Source: a bacterium
Lineage (GTDB): Bacteria; Krumholzibacteriota; Krumholzibacteriia; LZORAL124-64-63
Direction of reading: 5' to 3'
Length of the DNA: 64,000 nucleotides
Assembly: GCA_016703265.1 (NCBI GenBank)
Contig: JADJCK010000015.1
Coordinates: 8,586-72,585 of the forward strand
Made by a program: the position numbers and the translations under genes. Every line of letters begins with the position of its first letter. Within the stretch, counting starts at the first letter, position 1. This document shows positions 7,382 to 34,538 of the stretch, piece after piece. The notes beneath the pieces are model-generated. The model had not been told where the DNA came from. It did no database searches and saw only the letters and a list, made by a program, of their open reading frames with translations.

Positions 7382-7434
7382 ACTTGCGCCGGCGCAACTG
7401 CTCGCGTGGTTGTGATTGTTGCGCCGGCGCAAGT
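7382..7434. repeat. double-palindrome repeat, copy A (REP/BIME-like)
   Basis: ACTTGCGCCGGCGCAACT - 18-nt spacer ending GTGATT - GTTGCGCCGGCGCAAGT; 14-bp perfect palindrome cores at 7384-7397 and 7419-7432. Confidence 0.9.
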
Positions 7435-7506: not shown

Positions 7507-7977
7507 CTAGGTCCCGGCCTGGCGCGCCTCAGGCACGGCCAACGTCGCCAGATCGAACACGTTCGCGAAATTGACAATGGGCGGCACGAACGCGGGAAGC
7601 TGGGCTCTCAGCAGCGAAGACACGAGCGCTTCGCGAATGAACGGATACATCAGGCTGGGGGCCACACGACCGCCGACCTGCTTCAGTGCACTCGCCAGGG
7701 CGTCTGGGTCCACGGGCGGGTTGTCGATCTCGATGACGGATCGATAGGCCACCGCAAGCGTTACCCCCGGTAGATTCGTGATCTGCACCGACAGCTCTAC
7801 GCCTAGGACATTCGTGGCGAGGCGATTCAACCCGAGATTGAGCTTGAACTCGACCTGATGGTCGGACGCAAACTCCCGCACCGCGTCCTCTTTGCGAACT
7901 TCGAGCATGGTGAGTTCCGGGCCGGCCACGAGACGGATGCCCGGTTCGCTCCTGCTCTCTGTGGCTTCAGCTGACAT
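7507..7977 (-). CDS. SecB-like chaperone (third gene of a toxin-antitoxin-chaperone module)
   Basis: About 155 aa; SecB-like pattern (LEVRKED..EF., VEFKLNLG.., LMYPFIREALVSSLLRAQLP..PPIVNF); overlaps the hicB stop by 11 nt. Confidence 0.65.
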   Translation of the reverse strand: MSAEATESRSEPGIRLVAGPELTMLEVRKEDAVREFASDHQVEFKLNLGLNRLATNVLGVELSVQITNLPGVTLAVAYRSVIEIDNPPVDPDALASALKQVGGRVAPSLMYPFIREALVSSLLRAQLPAFVPPIVNFANVFDLATLAVPEARQAGT

Positions 7978-8530
7978 TCAGGTTCTCCTCGCATGCGAAC
8001 GAAAGCACGTTGTTTGGATGTTGTGACATGTACTCGGTGGTCTGGACTGTCAGTGACGGTCCTGAATCGTCTGATCTCCGGGAAAACGCACTCAGCGGAA
8101 TCAGGGACTGCGATGACGTGAGCGGCAGGCCGCCACTGCGCCCAAACGAGGCCTCAAAGCTGTAGCGTGGTAGTGGCCGGCGCTCGCGCGGTGCCGGTGA
8201 TGCATTGCGGGCGACCGATTCCTCGAGTTGCAGGACCATCCACCTGTTGACGCTCGTCCCCAATTCTGCGGCGCAGATGGTGACGGATCGATGGAGCTCC
8301 GGAGACATTCGCAACAGCAGTTTCCCGGAGAAGGGCCGCTCGGGTTCCTCCTGGCGCGTTGCGCAGAACTCGAGGTAGTCCTCGACCGAATCGATGAACG
8401 CCTGCTGGATCTCATCCACGGACCTGCCTTGAAACGTGATCACGTCCCGCGTGTTGACCACACGTCCGTGGAGCAGGTTCGCGTCCGCGTCGAACTCGAC
8501 GGTCGCCATGTAACCCTTGTACTCCATCAT
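7967..8530 (-). CDS. hicB: HicB-family antitoxin with long C-terminal extension (candidate chaperone-addiction region)
   Basis: MMEYKGYMATVEFDADANLLHGRVVNTRDVITFQGRSVDEIQQAFIDSVEDYLEFC plus RHH-like LLLRMSPELHRSVTICAAELGTSVNRWMV, then a ~60-aa low-complexity tail; 4-nt overlap with hicA. Confidence 0.75.
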   Translation of the reverse strand: MMEYKGYMATVEFDADANLLHGRVVNTRDVITFQGRSVDEIQQAFIDSVEDYLEFCATRQEEPERPFSGKLLLRMSPELHRSVTICAAELGTSVNRWMVLQLEESVARNASPAPRERRPLPRYSFEASFGRSGGLPLTSSQSLIPLSAFSRRSDDSGPSLTVQTTEYMSQHPNNVLSFACEENLNVS

Positions 8531-8781
8531 GGCGCTACTCCCGCCTGGATGAGGAACTCCCTGACCGACTTCACGGCGCCCCTGTCGGTTTCCCTCTTTG
8601 GGTGGGGCCGGTGGAAGATGGCCTTGCGACCGTTCAGCGCCACCCTGACGCGCGACCCTCGGCCCTCCGTGATCTCGGCGCCAAGTCCATTCAGCAGCGA
8701 GACGATGTCGTCCCACACAATGTCCGCTCTCGTGGGCGATTCGAAGATGGCCGCCAAGGTCCCGCGCTGGTGACTGTTCAT
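8527..8781 (-). CDS. hicA: HicA-family toxin
   Basis: 84 aa; TLAAIFESPTRADIVWDDIVSLLNGLGAEITEGRGSRVRVALNGRKAIFHRPHP matches the HicA mRNA-interferase pattern. Confidence 0.75.
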   Translation of the reverse strand: MNSHQRGTLAAIFESPTRADIVWDDIVSLLNGLGAEITEGRGSRVRVALNGRKAIFHRPHPKRETDRGAVKSVREFLIQAGVAP

Positions 8782-8980
8782 AAGCCGCCCTGGATAGATC
8801 GACCGCGGGTCGCTTCGCCTTGATTGAATGATACTACAAAATGATACTGCACGCCAATCGATATTCGTCGCGAGCGTTACTGTTTGTGAAATAGACGGTT
8901 AGTCGCCATTGCCCATCCCCCCTTCGGGCACACCTGGCCAACCAGAGAAGCTGTTTCGTTTATTTCATATATTGCGAATA

Positions 8981-9475
8981 ATGCGAATCTCCTTTACCAT
9001 CCCGAAATACCCAAGGAGCCCCGCCTTGCCCTCCCCGCAACCCGATCCCATCCAGCCCACCGAAGCGGAGATCCGCCTCGCCGCCGACGCGGTTCGTGAG
9101 CTGGCACGCTTTCTGGAAGCTGACCTTCCCATCCAGGTGCCTGGCCTCGACCGCCCCGTGGTGCTTCCCACCGCGGCCGTGCGCCTGCTGGTCGAGCTGC
9201 TCGCCACCATGGCGGAAGGACATGCCGTGACCCTGATCCCCGTCCACGCCGAACTCACCACCCAGCAGGCCGCCGACCTTCTCGGCGTTTCCCGCCCGTT
9301 CCTGGTCAAGGAACTGGAGTCGGGCCGCCTGGCCCACCGCAAGGTCGGCACGCATCGCCGCGTTCTGTTCCGCGACCTCATGGCCTACAAGCGTGCGCAC
9401 GAGGCCACGCGCGTGGAGGCGTTGGGGGAGCTGGCGGGACAGGCGCAGGATCTGGATCTGGGATACGGGGAGTGA
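8981..9475 (+). CDS. excisionase/MerR-type HTH antitoxin (partner of PIN toxins)
   Basis: TTQQAADLLGVSRPFLVKELESGRLAHRKVGTHRRVLFRDLMAYKR; start uncertain (TTG 8909 or ATG 8981). Confidence 0.6.
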   Translation: MRISFTIPKYPRSPALPSPQPDPIQPTEAEIRLAADAVRELARFLEADLPIQVPGLDRPVVLPTAAVRLLVELLATMAEGHAVTLIPVHAELTTQQAADLLGVSRPFLVKELESGRLAHRKVGTHRRVLFRDLMAYKRAHEATRVEALGELAGQAQDLDLGYGE

Positions 9476-9752
9476 CGAACTTCACTGCGGATATCGATGC
9501 CTGCGTACTGTATGCAGGGCACTTGCGCCGGCGCAAGTGATGGCGCCCGGCGGAGAAACCAATCGCGCTATTTCGAACCGCCGCTCCTCGTGTCGCGCAG
9601 CGTGTCGTCATCGTTTCAGACCGCCCCAAGGGAGGATCGATCTCCATGAGCCGTCGTCTCCATTCCGGCCATTCATTGATGCCGGCTTTGACGCGCTCGA
9701 CGCGGGCCCAGAATGCGGCGGACTCCGGGGTGTCAGTCTTCTTTTCCAGCAT
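9378..9752 (-). CDS. hypothetical small protein (only the N-terminal ~50 aa look genuine)
   Basis: MLEKKTDTPESAAFWARVERVKAGINEWPEWRRRLMEI is protein-like. The 3' half of the ORF reads through repeat B and overlaps the antitoxin gene, so the true end is unclear. Confidence 0.25.
   Translation of the reverse strand: MLEKKTDTPESAAFWARVERVKAGINEWPEWRRRLMEIDPPLGRSETMTTRCATRGAAVRNSAIGFSAGRHHLRRRKCPAYSTQASISAVKFVTPRIPDPDPAPVPPAPPTPPRAWPRAHACRP
9473..9540 (+). pseudogene. 5' stub of a PIN-domain (VapC-like) toxin gene, cut off by repeat copy B
   Basis: GTGA overlap with the antitoxin stop. It reads VTNFTADIDACVLYAG (typical PIN N-terminus with the first acidic residue), runs into ACTTGCGCCGGCGCAAGT and stops. 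Confidence 0.4.
9521..9538. repeat. single palindrome unit, copy B
   Basis: ACTTGCGCCGGCGCAAGT, perfect 18-bp palindrome. Confidence 0.85.
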
Positions 9753-10000: not shown

Positions 10001-10015
10001 ATATCCTTTGGAGCG

Positions 10016-10264
10016 ATGATGTCGCGCGCAGACAAGCTCATTGAACGAGCCTGCAGGCACCCTGGCTCACTCACGTTTGGAGAGCTGGAGCGGCTGGCAG
10101 GACTGTTCGGCTTCCATCAGGTCCGGCAGCGCGGCAGCCATCGCATCTTCAAGCGGCCGGGCCATCCGTACTTCAACTTCCAGGAGTCCGGCGGCATGGC
10201 GAAGATCGCGCAAGTAAGACAACTGCTCGACTACGCCCACTCCCAGGGCTGGCTCGACGACTGA
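10016..10264 (+). CDS. hicA: HicA-family toxin (second HicAB module)
   Basis: 82 aa; LTFGELERLAGLFGFHQVRQRGSHRIFKRPGHP (YcfA/HicA-like). Confidence 0.7.
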   Translation: MMSRADKLIERACRHPGSLTFGELERLAGLFGFHQVRQRGSHRIFKRPGHPYFNFQESGGMAKIAQVRQLLDYAHSQGWLDD

Positions 10265-10277
10265 TAAGGAGACCCCC

Positions 10278-10673
10278 ATGCCCGGCTACAGCCAGTACAT
10301 CGCCTGGAGCGCCGAGGACAACCAATACGTGGCCACTTGCCCGGAGCTGGCTCACCTCATGGCCCTTGGCGACACGGAAGAAGAAGCCGTGAGCGGACTG
10401 AAGGTCGCCATCGGACTGGTCCTCGAGGACATGGCCGCATCCGGCGCCACGCCGCCCATACCTTCAGGCCACATGGCGCACAGCGGGCAGTTCCGCGTGC
10501 GCCTGCCGCGCACGTTGCACGCGCGGCTCGCCATGCAGGCCGAGCGCGAAGGTGTCTCACTGAACACCCTGGTCTGCACGTTGTTGTCCGAGGGCTCCGC
10601 GCTCTGGCATGCGGCGGACCATGTGACGGAGCGGTTCAGGGTGGCTTGTGGGGAGGGGCTCGACCGGGAGTGA
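10278..10673 (+). CDS. hicB: HicB-family antitoxin
   Basis: YSQYIAWSAEDNQYVATCPELAHLMALGDTEEEAVSGLKVAIGLVLEDM plus C-terminal RHH FRVRLPRTLHARLAMQAEREGVSLNTLVCTLL. Confidence 0.75.
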   Translation: MPGYSQYIAWSAEDNQYVATCPELAHLMALGDTEEEAVSGLKVAIGLVLEDMAASGATPPIPSGHMAHSGQFRVRLPRTLHARLAMQAEREGVSLNTLVCTLLSEGSALWHAADHVTERFRVACGEGLDRE

Positions 10674-10705
10674 GGGGCGTTGGCGGGCAGGCGGGGGTGG
10701 CCCGT

Positions 10706-10756
10706 CAGCGCCGGCGCAACTTCTCCCGCGGCCGTGATTCTTGCGCCGGCGCAAGT
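10706..10756. repeat. double-palindrome repeat, copy C (left unit degenerate)
   Basis: CAGCGCCGGCGCAACT - TCTCCCGCGGCCGTGATT - CTTGCGCCGGCGCAAGT. Confidence 0.85.
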
Positions 10757-10825
10757 GACCAAACGACAAACTATATACGAATCAGAGTCCGTGCGGCGCA
10801 TGTTTTGGTCCAATGATGTTGTCTG

Positions 10826-11260
10826 GTGCGCCCATATTGGGTATCATATAGTACTAAACGACCCTCCCTGGTCGCCGAACCAATCACCGGCAGGTTCCTC
10901 GTGCCCCAGGCCCAGGCGTCCGACCAGGAACGACGATTACTGCGCGCCCTCGCGGCCGACCCGAGCCGGGCGACTGCGACCCAAAGGGCTCTCTACGACC
11001 TGATGGCTCATGGCCTGACGGTGGCCGACGCCTGCGACGCCCTGTGGCATTGGATCGTCGAGGATCGACCGGTGAAGCGGACCCTGATGCACGGCCAGGA
11101 TGACGGCCAACCCGCTTTCGAGATCTGGCCCGAGCTGGTGGGGCGGAAGTTCTATTGCAAGTTCCTCGTCAGGGGGAACCCGCTCGTGCAGCAGTTGCTG
11201 CTGGTGGTGTCGGCCCACCCCGACGATCCCCACAGCCCATCGAGAGGCAGCCCGTCATGA
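10826..11260 (+). CDS. MqsR-like toxin (putative)
   Basis: Sits directly upstream of, and ATGA-overlapping, a zinc-ribbon+HTH antitoxin. C-terminal GRKFYCKFLV....LLLVVSAHPD resembles the MqsR (Y.K..V....V.SFKE) core. True start may be GTG 10898, because TATCAT/TATAGT -10-like boxes lie at about 10841-10856. Confidence 0.45.
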   Translation: MRPYWVSYSTKRPSLVAEPITGRFLVPQAQASDQERRLLRALAADPSRATATQRALYDLMAHGLTVADACDALWHWIVEDRPVKRTLMHGQDDGQPAFEIWPELVGRKFYCKFLVRGNPLVQQLLLVVSAHPDDPHSPSRGSPS

Positions 11261-11832
11261 CCGAGCCCCAATGCCCCCTGTGCGGCGCGCCAGCCCTCAT
11301 CCACCACGAGGGCCAGTACAAGATGTACCCGCCGCCCAACATCCCTGGCGGGCCGTTCACCGTGGCCAACGCCAAGTGGGAGGCGTGCGCCGCGTGCAAC
11401 GAGGAGATCCTCCCCGCCGCGTTGCTCGCCGAGCTCGAAGCGCAGCGCATCGAACGGCTGGGTTACCTGCGACCTGATGAGATTCGCGCCGTGCGCGAGC
11501 GCGCGGGGCTGACGCAGACCGAGATGGCGATTTTCGTGGGCGTCGGCGAGAAGACGTATTGCCGGTGGGAGGCGGGCCGTTCGTTGCAGAACCTGTCGAG
11601 CGACAACCTCATCCGCCTGGCCGACCGCGTGCCCGAAGCGTTCGCCCAGCTGTCGGTACAGCGCGACCCGCAGCGTCAGGCCGTGATCGATGCCTATCTG
11701 GCCGACCTCGGTAACCAGGAAGGGTGCAGCGAACTGGCGCTGGCGGCGCACGGGGCCGAACTCGACGTGGCGCTGGCCGACGAGTTGCGCCTGCGCCTGC
11801 GCATCCTGGCATCGAAGGGGAAGGACCAGTGA
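11257..11832 (+). CDS. MqsA-like antitoxin (N-terminal zinc ribbon + XRE HTH) with a ~70-aa C-terminal extension
   Basis: CPLCG...CAACNEE zinc ribbon; HTH IRAVRERAGLTQTEMAIFVGVGEKTYCRWEAGRSLQ; extra tail after the HTH. Confidence 0.7.
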   Translation: MTEPQCPLCGAPALIHHEGQYKMYPPPNIPGGPFTVANAKWEACAACNEEILPAALLAELEAQRIERLGYLRPDEIRAVRERAGLTQTEMAIFVGVGEKTYCRWEAGRSLQNLSSDNLIRLADRVPEAFAQLSVQRDPQRQAVIDAYLADLGNQEGCSELALAAHGAELDVALADELRLRLRILASKGKDQ

Positions 11833-12677
11833 CCGCGAGAATGTTGCGCGGTGCACCCGGGATCGCGCCGCACGAATTGATGGTGCGCCTGCTGCACGCC
11901 ACTGCGCAGGACCAGCCGGGCGCCATCGACCCGGCCCGCCTGCTATCGTTCCTGGGCCTGGATTTCCTGCCGGTGGATTTCGCGACGGCGCTTCGCGACG
12001 TCCTTCCCGACGACGCCCGCACCGCGCGCGCGCTGCTGTCGTCTCCCGACCACCTGGTCGCCGTCGATGCCGCGCTCGACCCGCAGTGGGTGCGCTTCAG
12101 CACCCTGCACGAGATTGCCCATTACGTGCTGCAGGATCATCGCCACGCGCTCTACCTCTGCGATGCCGAAGGACTCAGCCACCGGGCGCGCCTCGACTTC
12201 GAAGTGCAGGCCAACCTTTTCGCCGCCGACCTGCTGTTCAAGGGCCATTATTTCACGGTGGAGGCGCAGGCCCTGCCGGTATCGGCCGCGACGGTCAAGG
12301 CGCTGGCGCTGAAGTACCAGGCCTCATTCGAAGCGACAGCACGCCGCCTGGTGGAGAAGCACCATGCCCCGGTCATGCTGGTCGTCTGCGAGCGACAGGC
12401 AGATCGCTCGGTCATCGACGCGTCCCAGTCCGCAGTCTGGCGGGTGAAGTACTGCTCGGCGTCGACGTCGTTCAGGACGCGATGGTTCGCCCGCGTTGAA
12501 GGCGAGGCGCCCGCCGAAATCGCCGCGGCGCTGTCGACCGGCGGGCGCGACCTCGCCGACTCGATCGTGGTGGAGATGCCGCTGGCGGGGGATGCGGGCG
12601 GAGCGTTCAGGGTCGAGTGGTACTTCGATCAGGGCCATGTCATGGGGCTCGCGATGCCGACGAAGGGTGGGGCTTAG
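11829..12677 (+). CDS. ImmA/IrrE-family (COG2856, DUF955) zinc metalloprotease
   Basis: HEIAHYVL (HExxH) followed by EVQANLFAADLL; GTGA overlap with the antitoxin stop. Confidence 0.7.
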   Translation: MTARMLRGAPGIAPHELMVRLLHATAQDQPGAIDPARLLSFLGLDFLPVDFATALRDVLPDDARTARALLSSPDHLVAVDAALDPQWVRFSTLHEIAHYVLQDHRHALYLCDAEGLSHRARLDFEVQANLFAADLLFKGHYFTVEAQALPVSAATVKALALKYQASFEATARRLVEKHHAPVMLVVCERQADRSVIDASQSAVWRVKYCSASTSFRTRWFARVEGEAPAEIAAALSTGGRDLADSIVVEMPLAGDAGGAFRVEWYFDQGHVMGLAMPTKGGA

Positions 12678-12693
12678 GGCAGTGGCGGGTGCC

Positions 12694-12746
12694 ACTTGCG
12701 CTGGCGCAACTTCTCCCGCCCCCGTGATTGTTGCGCCGGCGCAACT
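12694..12746. repeat. double-palindrome repeat, copy D
   Basis: ACTTGCGCTGGCGCAACT - TCTCCCGCCCCCGTGATT - GTTGCGCCGGCGCAACT. Confidence 0.85.
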
Positions 12747-12845
12747 CACAGAACCGCGTGAAATCCATCGCAAGCCGCATTAACGATAAGCCGGCATCGC
12801 ATCCCAAGCCCGCCCATCGCGAACGGATGAGTCGCGAGGGCTGAT

Positions 12846-13514
12846 TCACGATTCCGCGCGCGACTGACCACCGGTCAAGTCGCGCGCGTGCCCGGCGTGT
12901 CGCGGGCTGCCGACGGCCGCCAGGGGAATCTCGACGATCGCCACGCGTGCGGGGTTGAGATGGACATCTTCCCCGCCATTGTCATCGGTGAACGAGACCA
13001 TGCCGCAGCCTGGCGTCCAGACCTCAAGTTCCCCGGCGAAGGAGGCCAGCGGACGGCAATCGGGATCGCCGTCTTCGATTTCCCCCGGGTCGTCCGCATC
13101 GACGACAAATTCCACCACGGCGCGGTCAGAGGTGAAATGGACCCGCAACGCGCCGCGGCCTTCGGGACGTTCCTCGAGATCATCCTGGTTCTCGAAACGG
13201 GCCCCGTCGACAGCGCTGTCCCACAGCAGATGGATGGACTGCACGGCCGCCAGGCGGACGCAGACGATCTGGTAGCGCGAATCGAAACAGAAGAAGTTCT
13301 CGAAGCCGCGGTCACCCAGGGCTCTTTCGAGGCGCCGCTTGCACGTTGCTGCGATCGGGTAGTCGCACGGCTCTCGGCCTGGCAGGCGGATTCTGGCGGT
13401 CCAGTACACAGCGCCGTCGATGGCGGCGTGGTCCAACGGGTAGGCCGGTTGGGACTGGGGCGGGCTCTTCCCGGTCTGCGGCGTTCGTCTGTGGTTGTGC
13501 ATCGGGAGCTCCAT
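12846..13514 (-). CDS. hypothetical protein (no recognisable domain)
   Basis: Coding-like ORF; acidic C-terminal half; start at MELPMHN (13514) or MHN (13502); bracketed by repeat copies D and E. Confidence 0.4.
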   Translation of the reverse strand: MELPMHNHRRTPQTGKSPPQSQPAYPLDHAAIDGAVYWTARIRLPGREPCDYPIAATCKRRLERALGDRGFENFFCFDSRYQIVCVRLAAVQSIHLLWDSAVDGARFENQDDLEERPEGRGALRVHFTSDRAVVEFVVDADDPGEIEDGDPDCRPLASFAGELEVWTPGCGMVSFTDDNGGEDVHLNPARVAIVEIPLAAVGSPRHAGHARDLTGGQSRAES

Positions 13515-13722
13515 TTGCTGCGCGCATGGCGGGAGACTGCCCGCTTGAGCGCAGGGAACCCGTGGGCACGCCGGGTGCCAGCCCGCTCGCAACTGCCGGA
13601 AACCGCGCTGTGGACGCCGCGGGAGTGGAGCTTCGGTCTGGCGGCCGCCATGGGCCGGGGGTGGATTGTGTCGCCAGCGCGGGACGCGTTGGGCCGAAGT
13701 GGATAGACCGATTGACGGCGGC

Positions 13723-13775
13723 AGTTGCGCCGGCGCAAGTCTTCAAGCCACCGTGATTCTTGCGCCGGCGCAAGT
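13723..13775. repeat. double-palindrome repeat, copy E
   Basis: AGTTGCGCCGGCGCAAGT - CTTCAAGCCACCGTGATT - CTTGCGCCGGCGCAAGT. Confidence 0.9.
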
Positions 13776-13833: not shown

Positions 13834-14523
13834 CTATTCCCGCCCCCGCACCAACATCCCCCCGCTGATCCCCAGCACCACCGCCGCATGCAGGAACGCC
13901 ACCATCGGTGTCCACATCAATCGCGATTCGCCGTGCTGCGAGATCACCATCGCCAATGGCAGGGCACAGAGGGCCAGCAGGAGCCAGCCGGTGACGCGCG
14001 GCGCACGTCGCGCAAGAAAAGCGAGCCCCGCGAGACCTGCGGCCGCCAGTAGAACGAATCCCGCAGCCGCTGTCGTCCTCTCGGCAAAGGATCCCGTCAG
14101 GACGATCGAAATCGACGCGGCAGTGAGCACCGATGCACCCAGCAGCAGCCGGAACGTGCCGGCGCGAGCGCCCCAGTATTGGAGCAGATAGCTGACGGCG
14201 AAGACCTCGACCAACAGCTTGCGTGGCGTCTCGCCACTGAAGGCCGCACTCACGTTCGGCCCGAGGCGCCCGGCGAAGAGCAGGACAGCCACCGCCAACA
14301 ACGCATGAAACCCGGCGCGACGCGTCACGCCCATCGTCCATTCATCCGCATCCTTCAACCAGCCGATCTCGCGCAGCACCGACGGCAGGAACACCGCCAG
14401 GGCGAACGCGACCTCGAGGCGCGGATAGAGCCAGGTGCCGGCCAGGGCCACCACGCCGATGCCGAACGCGATCGCGTCGATCGACGGCAAGCGCCTGGGG
14501 GTCTCACGCGTCATCATCGTCAT
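13834..14523 (-). CDS. multi-pass membrane protein co-transcribed with a small XRE regulator
   Basis: At least 5 hydrophobic helices; overlaps the upstream HTH gene by about 20 nt. Confidence 0.5.
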   Translation of the reverse strand: MTMMTRETPRRLPSIDAIAFGIGVVALAGTWLYPRLEVAFALAVFLPSVLREIGWLKDADEWTMGVTRRAGFHALLAVAVLLFAGRLGPNVSAAFSGETPRKLLVEVFAVSYLLQYWGARAGTFRLLLGASVLTAASISIVLTGSFAERTTAAAGFVLLAAAGLAGLAFLARRAPRVTGWLLLALCALPLAMVISQHGESRLMWTPMVAFLHAAVVLGISGGMLVRGRE

Positions 14524-14728
14524 CCCCTCCCTCGACGAGCTCGAACAGGTCGGTGACGGGCATGCCCAGGGCGTCGGCCAGCGTGAACGCGAGCAGGGCC
14601 GAGGGCACGTACTTGCCCTTCTCGATGGCCAGGATGGTCTGGCGGCGCACACCGACGGCGGCGGCCAGGTCTTCCTGGGTCAAATCGAGGCGGGCGCGGT
14701 GCTGTTTCAGGTGGTTGGTGAGTTTCAT
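14504..14728 (-). CDS. XRE-family HTH transcriptional regulator (74 aa, acidic tail)
   Basis: LKQHRARLDLTQEDLAAAVGVRRQTILAIEKGKYVPSALLAFTLADALGMPVTDLF. Confidence 0.8.
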   Translation of the reverse strand: MKLTNHLKQHRARLDLTQEDLAAAVGVRRQTILAIEKGKYVPSALLAFTLADALGMPVTDLFELVEGGDDDDDA

Positions 14729-18645: not shown

Positions 18646-18697
18646 ACTTGCGCCGGCGCAAGTTTCACGATTTGGCGATTGTTGCGCCGGCGCAAGT
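18646..18697. repeat. double-palindrome repeat, copy F
   Basis: ACTTGCGCCGGCGCAAGT - TTCACGATTTGGCGATT - GTTGCGCCGGCGCAAGT. Confidence 0.9.
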
Positions 18698-19845: not shown

Positions 19846-19926
19846 ACTTGCGCCGGCGCAACTCTCACGACGAAGTGATCGTTGCGCCGCCGCCTGCCTC
19901 GTCTCGCGACTTGCGCCGGCGCAAGT
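19846..19926. repeat. triple-unit version of the palindrome repeat, copy G
   Basis: ACTTGCGCCGGCGCAACT - CTCACGACGAAGTGATC - GTTGCGCCGCCGC (degenerate) - 17 nt - ACTTGCGCCGGCGCAAGT. Confidence 0.9.
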
Positions 19927-34486: not shown

Positions 34487-34538
34487 ACTTGCGCCGGCGC
34501 AAGTCTCACGGCATCGCCACGGTTGCGCCGGCGCAACA
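34487..34538. repeat. double-palindrome repeat, copy J
   Basis: ACTTGCGCCGGCGCAAGT - CTCACGGCATCGCCACG - GTTGCGCCGGCGCAAC. Confidence 0.9.

Follow-up and report, generated by a model that had tools for sequence, protein, structure and literature searches.

The toxin-antitoxin (TA) field has long debated whether type II toxins leave their antitoxins in vivo, and if so by what route, and it has relied on housekeeping proteases (Lon, Clp) for toxin release. In the MqsR/MqsA system of E. coli (3HI2, 3GN5), a gene for a toxin of the MqsR fold, with the pattern Y-x-K ... S-x-[K/H], precedes the antitoxin gene, to which it is coupled, and the antitoxin consists of a zinc ribbon and an XRE helix-turn-helix (HTH). 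Dedicated proteases are found in another kind of system, where DNA damage makes the protease cut its partner: CapP acts on CapH, IrrE on DdrO, and ImmA on ImmR (bioRxiv 10.1101/2022.04.27.489752; 10.64898/2026.05.16.725639). As early as 2009, Makarova, Wolf and Koonin predicted a three-component TA system in which a COG2856 Zn-protease cleaves an antitoxin of the Xre type that is paired with a PIN toxin or with one of the RelE superfamily (PMC2701414). The locus described here consists of three genes, which are predicted to encode a toxin-like protein with the MqsR fold, a long MqsA-type antitoxin, and a CapP/IrrE-like M78 zinc metallopeptidase. It lies on a 64,000-nucleotide (nt) stretch of DNA from a bacterium of the Krumholzibacteriota (GenBank assembly GCA_016703265.1, contig JADJCK010000015.1, positions 8,586 to 72,585), and this whole stretch is called the window in the following. 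We regard it as an even call that the triad is a three-component protease-gated TA operon, with the order toxin, antitoxin, protease.

The three open reading frames (ORFs) are all on the + strand at 10901-12677 and follow each other in this order without any gap. Between genes 1 and 2, the ATG at 11257-11259 overlaps the TGA at 11258-11260, and between genes 2 and 3, the GTG at 11829-11831 overlaps the TGA at 11830-11832, just as a first-pass annotation of this DNA had read it. The third-position GC content (GC3) of the three genes is of the coding type (0.82-0.88) and homologues occur in the same order in many genomes, which is why the genes can be regarded as real and not as chance ORFs. Only the start of gene 1 had been placed wrongly, at 10826: all nine close homologues have 119 amino acids (aa) and begin at the residue that is equivalent to the GTG at 10901, GC3 is 0.56 across 10826-10900 versus 0.82 across 10901-11260, and a promoter-like site together with a conserved non-coding block occupies 10819-10855, so that GTG 10901 is the true start.

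The three genes form one coupled, strictly co-conserved unit, and the triad is widespread in uncultivated Planctomycetota and in other metagenome-assembled genomes (MAGs). The neighbourhood count is based on 81 loci that were fetched by the long MqsA at 43-97% identity and that are not all independent of each other. It had been set beforehand that a protease gene that does not accompany the pair in relatives would speak against a functional unit, and what was found is an M78 gene downstream of the long MqsA in 56 of the 59 evaluable loci, an ORF of the gene 1 family upstream of it in 58 of 62, and the complete triad in 40 of 46. Three MAGs with a gene 1 of 74-76% identity have the same triad together with the flanking hairpin repeats, downstream of a different upstream gene, and the order is kept also in six distant members (P0078, P0046, P0022, P0041, P0066, P0142) whose gene 1 is only 24-36% identical. 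In these six, a small protein is followed by an MqsA of 189-194 aa and then by an M78 protein of 275-288 aa, with overlaps or short gaps between the genes. In a comparison of eight lineages, a 4-nt overlap joins the antitoxin gene to the protease gene in the window and in the majority of the others, and the two are no more than 6 nt apart in the rest. Two loci, L023 (2731-4412, on an IMG/VR contig) and L064, contain the long MqsA and the M78 gene with no recognisable ORF of the gene 1 family upstream; their MqsA ORF is about 90 residues longer at the N-terminus, which may reflect a toxin that was fused or replaced, or simply an over-extension of the ORF.

The protein of gene 1 is listed as "hypothetical" in public records, and it has no match in Pfam, NCBIfam, PADLOC, or PHROGs, nor did a PDB sequence search with 9- and 48-sequence profiles give anything meaningful. 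An exhaustive profile search assembled a family of 69 representatives of about 105-125 aa, and it was the deeper alignment from this search that raised both the model quality and the hhalign probability. With the shallow 9-sequence alignment, the AlphaFold2 (AF2) model was unusable (pLDDT, the predicted local distance difference test, of 50) and the hhalign comparison with MqsR gave 0.7%, whereas the 48-sequence alignment resulted in a model with a pLDDT of 92 and an hhalign probability of 82% against E. coli MqsR (pairwise E 1e-5, MqsR residues 17-95). The top Foldseek match of this model is E. coli MqsR (3HI2_B; probability 1.00, TM 0.61/0.73), with a root-mean-square deviation of 3.1 A over 101 columns. 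It is the sole confident neighbour in the PDB, as all other matches have probabilities of <= 0.54, and a Foldseek search against viral structures gave no confident match. The MqsR-like identity that had been assigned to gene 1 at first reading is thus supported by the Foldseek match and, less firmly, by hhalign, though the Pfam model of MqsR failed to recognise it.

As modelled, gene 1 has the MqsR fold, and it can be regarded as a putative ribonuclease toxin of a divergent MqsR type (RelE superfamily). The residues conserved in its family are G69, P77, Y85, K87, S104, and H106, and the MqsR pattern Y..K...S.K is retained in the form of Y85/K87/S104/H106. In detail, Y81 of MqsR corresponds to Y85 (Y in 44 of 48 sequences), K83 to K87 (K in 41 of 48), and S94 to the fully conserved S104 (48/48), while K96 is substituted by a histidine, H106, in 48 of 48 sequences; this last mapping is an extrapolation, as the hhalign alignment stops one residue short of it. 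Toxicity of MqsR depends on K56, Q68, Y81, and K96 (PMC2791442), and two of these four residues, Y81 and K96, map to positions that are conserved in the gene 1 family. Gene 1 shares with E. coli MqsR the place in front of the antitoxin gene, the fold, and the pattern of residues, and it differs in failing the Pfam MqsR model and in having a His in place of K96.

Gene 2 is, judged from its sequence, a bona fide MqsA-family protein. It passes both curated MqsA models (TIGR03830 with 70.7 bits at a cut-off of 61.8, PF15731 with 44.2 bits at a cut-off of 30) and its sequence matches the E. coli MqsA structures 3GN5 and 2KZ8. The layout that had been proposed for the middle protein, a CxxC..CxxC ribbon followed by an XRE HTH, is indeed present: the CxxC pairs are at residues 6-9 and 44-47, with C9, C44, and C47 invariant and C6 nearly invariant among 40 relatives, and HTH_3 and HTH_31 match over residues 75-123. 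The protein had also been described as having about 70 extra residues at the C-terminus, of which the extension as such could be confirmed, but not the length, as the MqsA profile ends at residue 132 and the tail beyond it has 59 residues (133-191). This tail is absent from E. coli MqsA, and it sets the triad apart from the E. coli system, as does the third, co-conserved protease gene. In the alignment of 40 sequences, the tail equals the HTH in its degree of conservation, with conserved positions at R136, P138, R140, Y147, L151, A161, A163, A164, H165, and L181, several of which belong to an [LM]-A-A-H-G motif (LALAAHG at 11734-11754 in the window). The family of such long MqsA proteins comprises at least 117 clusters of 187-194 aa.

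The tail type changes together with the third gene, which is the strongest computational argument for the tail being the interface with the third component. All inspected antitoxins that are linked to a protease carry the [LM]AAH tail, as checked by eye on the sequences, and two loci that have no protease (L080, L083) have an unrelated antitoxin tail. In three further loci (L017, L018, L022), the third gene is a ParA/AAA_31-TPR protein of 560-570 aa (PADLOC PDC-M28B), and there the long MqsA has a different C-terminal domain without the AAH motif, while the toxin of the gene 1 family is retained (hidden Markov model E 1e-17 to 3e-9).

The third gene matches PF06114 (Peptidase_M78) with 39.5 bits at a cut-off of 22, and its HEIAH motif, which had led to its description as an ImmA/IrrE protease, is found at residues 94-98 (12108-12122). 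This identity was supported, and CapP and IrrE turned out to be the closest characterised proteins: the best PADLOC match is capP (E 7e-21), the match to the RmrA profile is weaker (E 4e-5), capP is the top PADLOC match in all eight lineages (best E 1.6e-26), and the closest solved relatives by PDB sequence are CapP (7T5T) and IrrE (3DTE). With 282 aa, the protein is also about as long as CapP (291 aa). In CapP, a cysteine switch caps the zinc until single-stranded DNA (ssDNA) binds, and the protein further has a central HTH and a C-terminal GAF-like domain that form an ssDNA groove (bioRxiv 10.64898/2026.05.16.725639). Gene 3 has its third zinc ligand at E125 (12201-12203) and a cysteine in the position of the switch at C111 (12159-12161). 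H94, E95, H98, C111, and E125 are invariant in the eight lineages, and a Cys is present at the position of C111 in 57 of the 59 metagenomic homologues that reach the motif. C111 is part of YLCDAEG, in which it aligns with the Cys of FQCSDAD from Thauera CapP, and in both cases acidic residues follow. The C111 loop is therefore predicted to function as a cysteine switch of the CapP type. Some weak matches of gene 3 residues 44-100 (11958-12128) to hepatitis B virus core antigen (E 1e-3 to 0.8; LDFLPVDFATALRDVL versus LSFLPSDFFPSVRDLL) were judged to be due to chance, probably a chance likeness of an amphipathic helix.

Upstream of the triad there is a promoter-like site that is the sole sigma-70-like match across 10600-12900, where 0.2 would be expected. 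A 16-nt block, GGTATCATATAGTACT, overlaps its -10 hexamer and is almost unchanged across four genomes, while the neighbouring intergenic DNA has diverged. The block is an imperfect palindrome and thus a candidate operator for the MqsA-like repressor.

In the mechanism that we propose, the N-terminal zinc ribbon of gene 2 would sequester the toxin, the XRE HTH would repress the operon at the conserved block at the -10 hexamer, and the 59-residue tail would serve as the handle and cleavage region for the protease. Gene 3 would be held inactive by C111 capping the catalytic zinc, until, in analogy to CapP and IrrE, ssDNA that arises through DNA damage or when phages replicate unlocks the active site. 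The activated protease would then cut the antitoxin tail, the repressor would leave the DNA and the operon would be derepressed, the cut antitoxin would be lost or loosened, and the freed RNase could become active and cause growth arrest or abortive infection. We infer tail cleavage, the ssDNA signal, and the toxin release from what is known of MqsRA, CapP/CapH, IrrE/DdrO, and ImmA/ImmR, and that a dedicated protease acts here in place of Lon/Clp is speculation.

The surroundings of the triad are of relevance for this mechanism. In the window, the triad is located within an island of small TA-like cassettes that are separated by hairpin repeats. There is no co-directional gene downstream of it, and there is no immune operon on either flank; it is surrounded by TA cassettes of the HicAB type and by small genes of unknown kind. 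Among them are HicB and HicA on the - strand (7967-8781), an HTH_17 protein (8909-9475), a HicA-like protein at about 10014-10264 that is followed by HicB (10278-10673), an ORF on the - strand without any Pfam match (12846-13592), and an XRE HTH (14504-14728) that overlaps the ORF of a membrane protein (13834-14652). Elsewhere, the triad adjoins a PIN/RHH pair (L016) or has both a UvrD helicase and a TIR gene as neighbours (L011).

The repeats consist of a 14-nt palindrome, TTGCGCCGGCGCAA, that has 18 matches in the window versus 1.2 expected and that often occurs as doublets with a distance of about 35 nt, which fold as GC-rich hairpins of roughly 15 bp. Doublets are at 7384-7432, 10706-10754, 12696-12744, 13725-13773, 18648-18695, 19848-19924, and 34489-34536, single copies at 9523, 20726, 21163, and 45982, and they partition the small cassettes of the TA island. 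In relatives the element is at L001 2949, at L002 514/4842/6795, and at L003 4251, and in these three genomes the same repeat stands both 5' and 3' of the triad, despite the different upstream gene there. The doublet downstream of gene 3 is possibly a 3' stabiliser or an insulator. An Rfam scan of the whole window gave no matches, repeats included. A reading of the repeats as integron attC sites was set aside without a scan of the window for an integrase, as the palindrome occurs also far away from the island (at 34.5 kb and 46 kb) amid genes of the housekeeping type, and REP/REPIN-like is probably the better description. The coordinates of all features are compiled in the table.

Features of the triad in the window and of variant loci in other genomes. 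Roles of non-coding features and of the gene 2 tail are predictions.
Feature	Position	Strand	Basis or remark
Upstream boundary: first TTGCGCCGGCGCAA doublet (14-nt palindrome), REPIN-like hairpin	10706..10754	.	palindrome count, folding
Promoter-like site TTGTCT-17 nt-TATCAT (predicted)	10819..10847	+	sigma-70-like match
Conserved non-coding block GGTATCATATAGTACT, 16 nt (candidate operator)	10840..10855	+	near-invariant in four genomes
Gene 1, 119-aa MqsR-fold protein, putative RNase toxin	10901..11260	+	homologue starts, GC3, AF2/Foldseek
Gene 2, 191-aa long MqsA-type antitoxin/repressor	11257..11832	+	TIGR03830, PF15731
Gene 2 C-terminal domain, residues 133-191 (proposed protease docking/cleavage region)	11653..11829	+	40-sequence alignment
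Gene 3, 282-aa CapP/IrrE-like M78 zinc metallopeptidase	11829..12677	+	PF06114, PADLOC capP
Downstream boundary: second TTGCGCCGGCGCAA doublet, REPIN-like hairpin	12696..12744	.	folds -29.9 kcal/mol, z = -5.7
ParA-TPR variant triads	L017 3159-5794; L018 3157-5769; L022 1441-3926
Methyltransferase-triad-helicase operon	L004 1-8348 (also L005-L007); L014 983-8333

Several points weigh against a protease-gated toxin release, and the freeing of the toxin is the weakest step of the mechanism. It is known that MqsA needs no more than its N-terminal zinc domain to neutralise MqsR (PMC2791442; PMC10440598), for which reason cleavage of the tail may derepress the operon without freeing any toxin, and toxin release would require that the cleavage destabilises the whole antitoxin. 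CapP, IrrE, and ImmA cut their partners C-terminal to the HTH, in the C-terminal dimerisation domain (bioRxiv 10.64898/2026.05.16.725639). On the side of the toxin, gene 1 has no match to the Pfam model MqsR_toxin (PF15723) at E <= 1, and only 3 of 48 sequences of its family match that model, all of them weakly (best E 0.004). K59 and Q70 of gene 1 align to K56 and Q68 of MqsR, but these columns are variable in the family, and RNase activity is therefore not assured. On the side of the protease, the sole pointer to a C-terminal GAF-like ssDNA-sensing domain is the sequence alignment with IrrE, which covers gene 3 residues 73 to about 220-232, and the residue that aligns to R90 of CapP is W87 in the window, whereas the family consensus has an R there. 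Finally, the placement of the triad in a defence operon in some lineages fits a purely regulatory role. Toxin activation is nevertheless favoured, as gene 1 keeps the invariant S-x-H and the conserved Y-x-K, and as the stand-alone cassette of the window has no other output: with no co-directional gene downstream, the toxin itself is the only possible output of the switch.

It is the purely regulatory role that has to be taken seriously as an alternative, above all in loci where a defence helicase follows the triad, although on the whole we consider it unlikely. Genes 2 and 3 would in this case be a CapH/CapP-type pair that raises the expression of the operon, and of a defence gene downstream of it, after DNA damage, and the MqsR-like protein would stay neutralised and serve chiefly for addiction or stabilisation, or else act as a co-regulator. 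Such a transcription-only switch would agree with the sufficiency of the MqsA zinc domain for neutralisation and with the cleavage of known M78 partners in their C-terminal dimerisation domain, and also with a conserved operon of two divergent lineages (L004-L007 and L014), in which the triad follows a Type IIG/DrmMI-like methyltransferase and precedes, in the same direction and by 12-19 nt, a DruE-like helicase (domains DEAD/YjiV_N/Helicase_C/MZB), an arrangement that resembles CapH/CapP beside immune operons. In these operons the flanking genes of L004-L007 and L014 are 52-62% identical, whereas the triad genes are only 25-42% identical, which suggests a cassette replacement or a fast evolution inside the defence operon. 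There is, however, no conserved downstream gene that could be regulated in the window, in L001-L003, L011, L016, or L019, where the cassette is self-contained, and the retention of gene 1 in the 58 of 62 loci, with its S-x-H and Y-x-K residues, argues for a maintained enzymatic function.

The pairing of an M78 protease with an XRE protein is also the architecture of ImmA/ImmR, and with the cassette being bracketed by repeats, occurring in varied genomic contexts, and having one homologue on an IMG/VR contig, one could think of an immunity module of a mobile element, with the long MqsA as repressor, the protease as anti-repressor, and gene 1 as a passenger. But no integrase, replication, conjugation, or phage structural genes are found beside the triad in the window and the fetched loci, the module spans just three genes between the repeats, and that single homologue locus is the only one among 2.9 million viral contigs, so that we regard this explanation as improbable. 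Still less probable is that the protease itself is the toxic component and gene 1 an accessory, as in the older reading of Xre-COG2856 pairs as TA systems. COG2856 was listed in 2009 as a predicted toxin partner of Xre (PMC2701414) and the title of PDB entry 7T5T speaks of a "CapP toxin", but the same 2009 paper judged the cleavage of the Xre repressor to be the most likely role (PMC2701414), all characterised relatives (ImmA, IrrE, CapP) are anti-repressors, and gene 1 has a known toxin fold, as modelled, and stands where a toxin gene is expected, ahead of an MqsA-type antitoxin. The public annotation, which separates a hypothetical protein, an MqsA family antitoxin, and an ImmA/IrrE metallo-endopeptidase, would further allow for an ordinary two-gene MqsRA pair that an unrelated protease gene adjoins by chance. 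The probability of this is close to nil, and it is refuted by the co-conservation data, given the overlap or close spacing of the antitoxin and protease genes in the eight lineages, the M78 gene downstream in 56 of 59 loci, and the tail motif that co-varies with the protease.

With the protease-gated TA operon as the preferred explanation, it can be asked to which of the described systems the triad is closest. With CapH/CapP (7T5T; bioRxiv 10.1101/2022.04.27.489752, 10.64898/2026.05.16.725639) it shares the HExxH motif, the Glu as third ligand, the cysteine-switch loop followed by acidic residues, and the pairing of the peptidase with an XRE-HTH protein that bears a C-terminal domain. It differs in that the candidate substrate carries an MqsA zinc ribbon as an N-terminal addition and has another kind of C-terminal domain, in that the genes are co-directional, overlapping, and placed behind a toxin gene, and in that neither CBASS nor a downstream operon is near the triad of the window. 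The adjacent immune operon by which CapH/CapP is strictly defined is thus missing there. In IrrE(PprI)/DdrO of Deinococcus and in ImmA/ImmR of ICEBs1 and phages, a COG2856/M78 protease cuts the C-terminal domain of an XRE repressor on DNA damage, and gene 3 would do likewise; these systems, however, control DNA-repair regulons or the induction of mobile elements, and they have no toxin attached to the repressor.

Among TA systems, the Rosmer system RmrT/RmrA and MqsR:PanA (Ernits et al. 2023, PMC10440598) are similar insofar as the toxin comes with an additional unit, which in RmrA is a protease domain of the ImmA type and in PanA an extra C-terminal domain on an antitoxin with zinc-binding domain and HTH. 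RmrA, however, fuses HTH and protease in one antitoxin, whereas the genes of the triad are separate, which places it outside Rosmer, and PanA adds a Panacea domain and no protease. The 2009 prediction (PMC2701414) was about mostly fused Xre-COG2856 proteins beside RelE or PIN toxins, and the triad has a separate CapP-like protease, an MqsA-type antitoxin with a dedicated tail, and an unannotated MqsR-like toxin family instead. The literature searches found no paper that describes a triad of MqsR/MqsA and an ImmA/IrrE/CapP protein, in agreement with the view in the first-pass annotation that the triad has not been characterised as a system, while its general concept is not new, as it had been predicted in 2009. 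In sum, the component families are known (MqsA, the MqsR fold, and M78 peptidases of the CapP/IrrE type), the logic was predicted, and this triad is uncharacterised.

The variants with a ParA-TPR protein lead to a more general idea, which we put forward tentatively, as possible rather than probable. Type II TA systems with a long MqsA may together form a modular class that is gated by sensors. The tail would then be an exchangeable receiver that is matched to the sensor encoded by the third gene, mostly a CapP-like ssDNA-activated protease and elsewhere a ParA-TPR ATPase, and the sensor would directly liberate the MqsR-like RNase on DNA damage or phage infection.

A family of proteins so far annotated as hypothetical only can now be given a fold and a probable function. 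The triad also connects the DNA-damage sensing module of CapP, IrrE, and ImmA with the classical TA systems, with ssDNA as the candidate for the trigger, the 59-residue tail with its [LM]AAH motif as the proposed substrate region, and an RNase as the likely output. Where the triad is part of the operon with the methyltransferase and the DruE-like helicase, it may have an added role as a regulator or a back-up effector of phage defence. If the proposed mechanism is true, the triad would stand as a natural case of a type II TA system that sets its toxin free by a dedicated trigger of its own and not by housekeeping proteases, and an MqsRA-type pair with a signal-activated protease would be a clean system for the question of how toxins are released.

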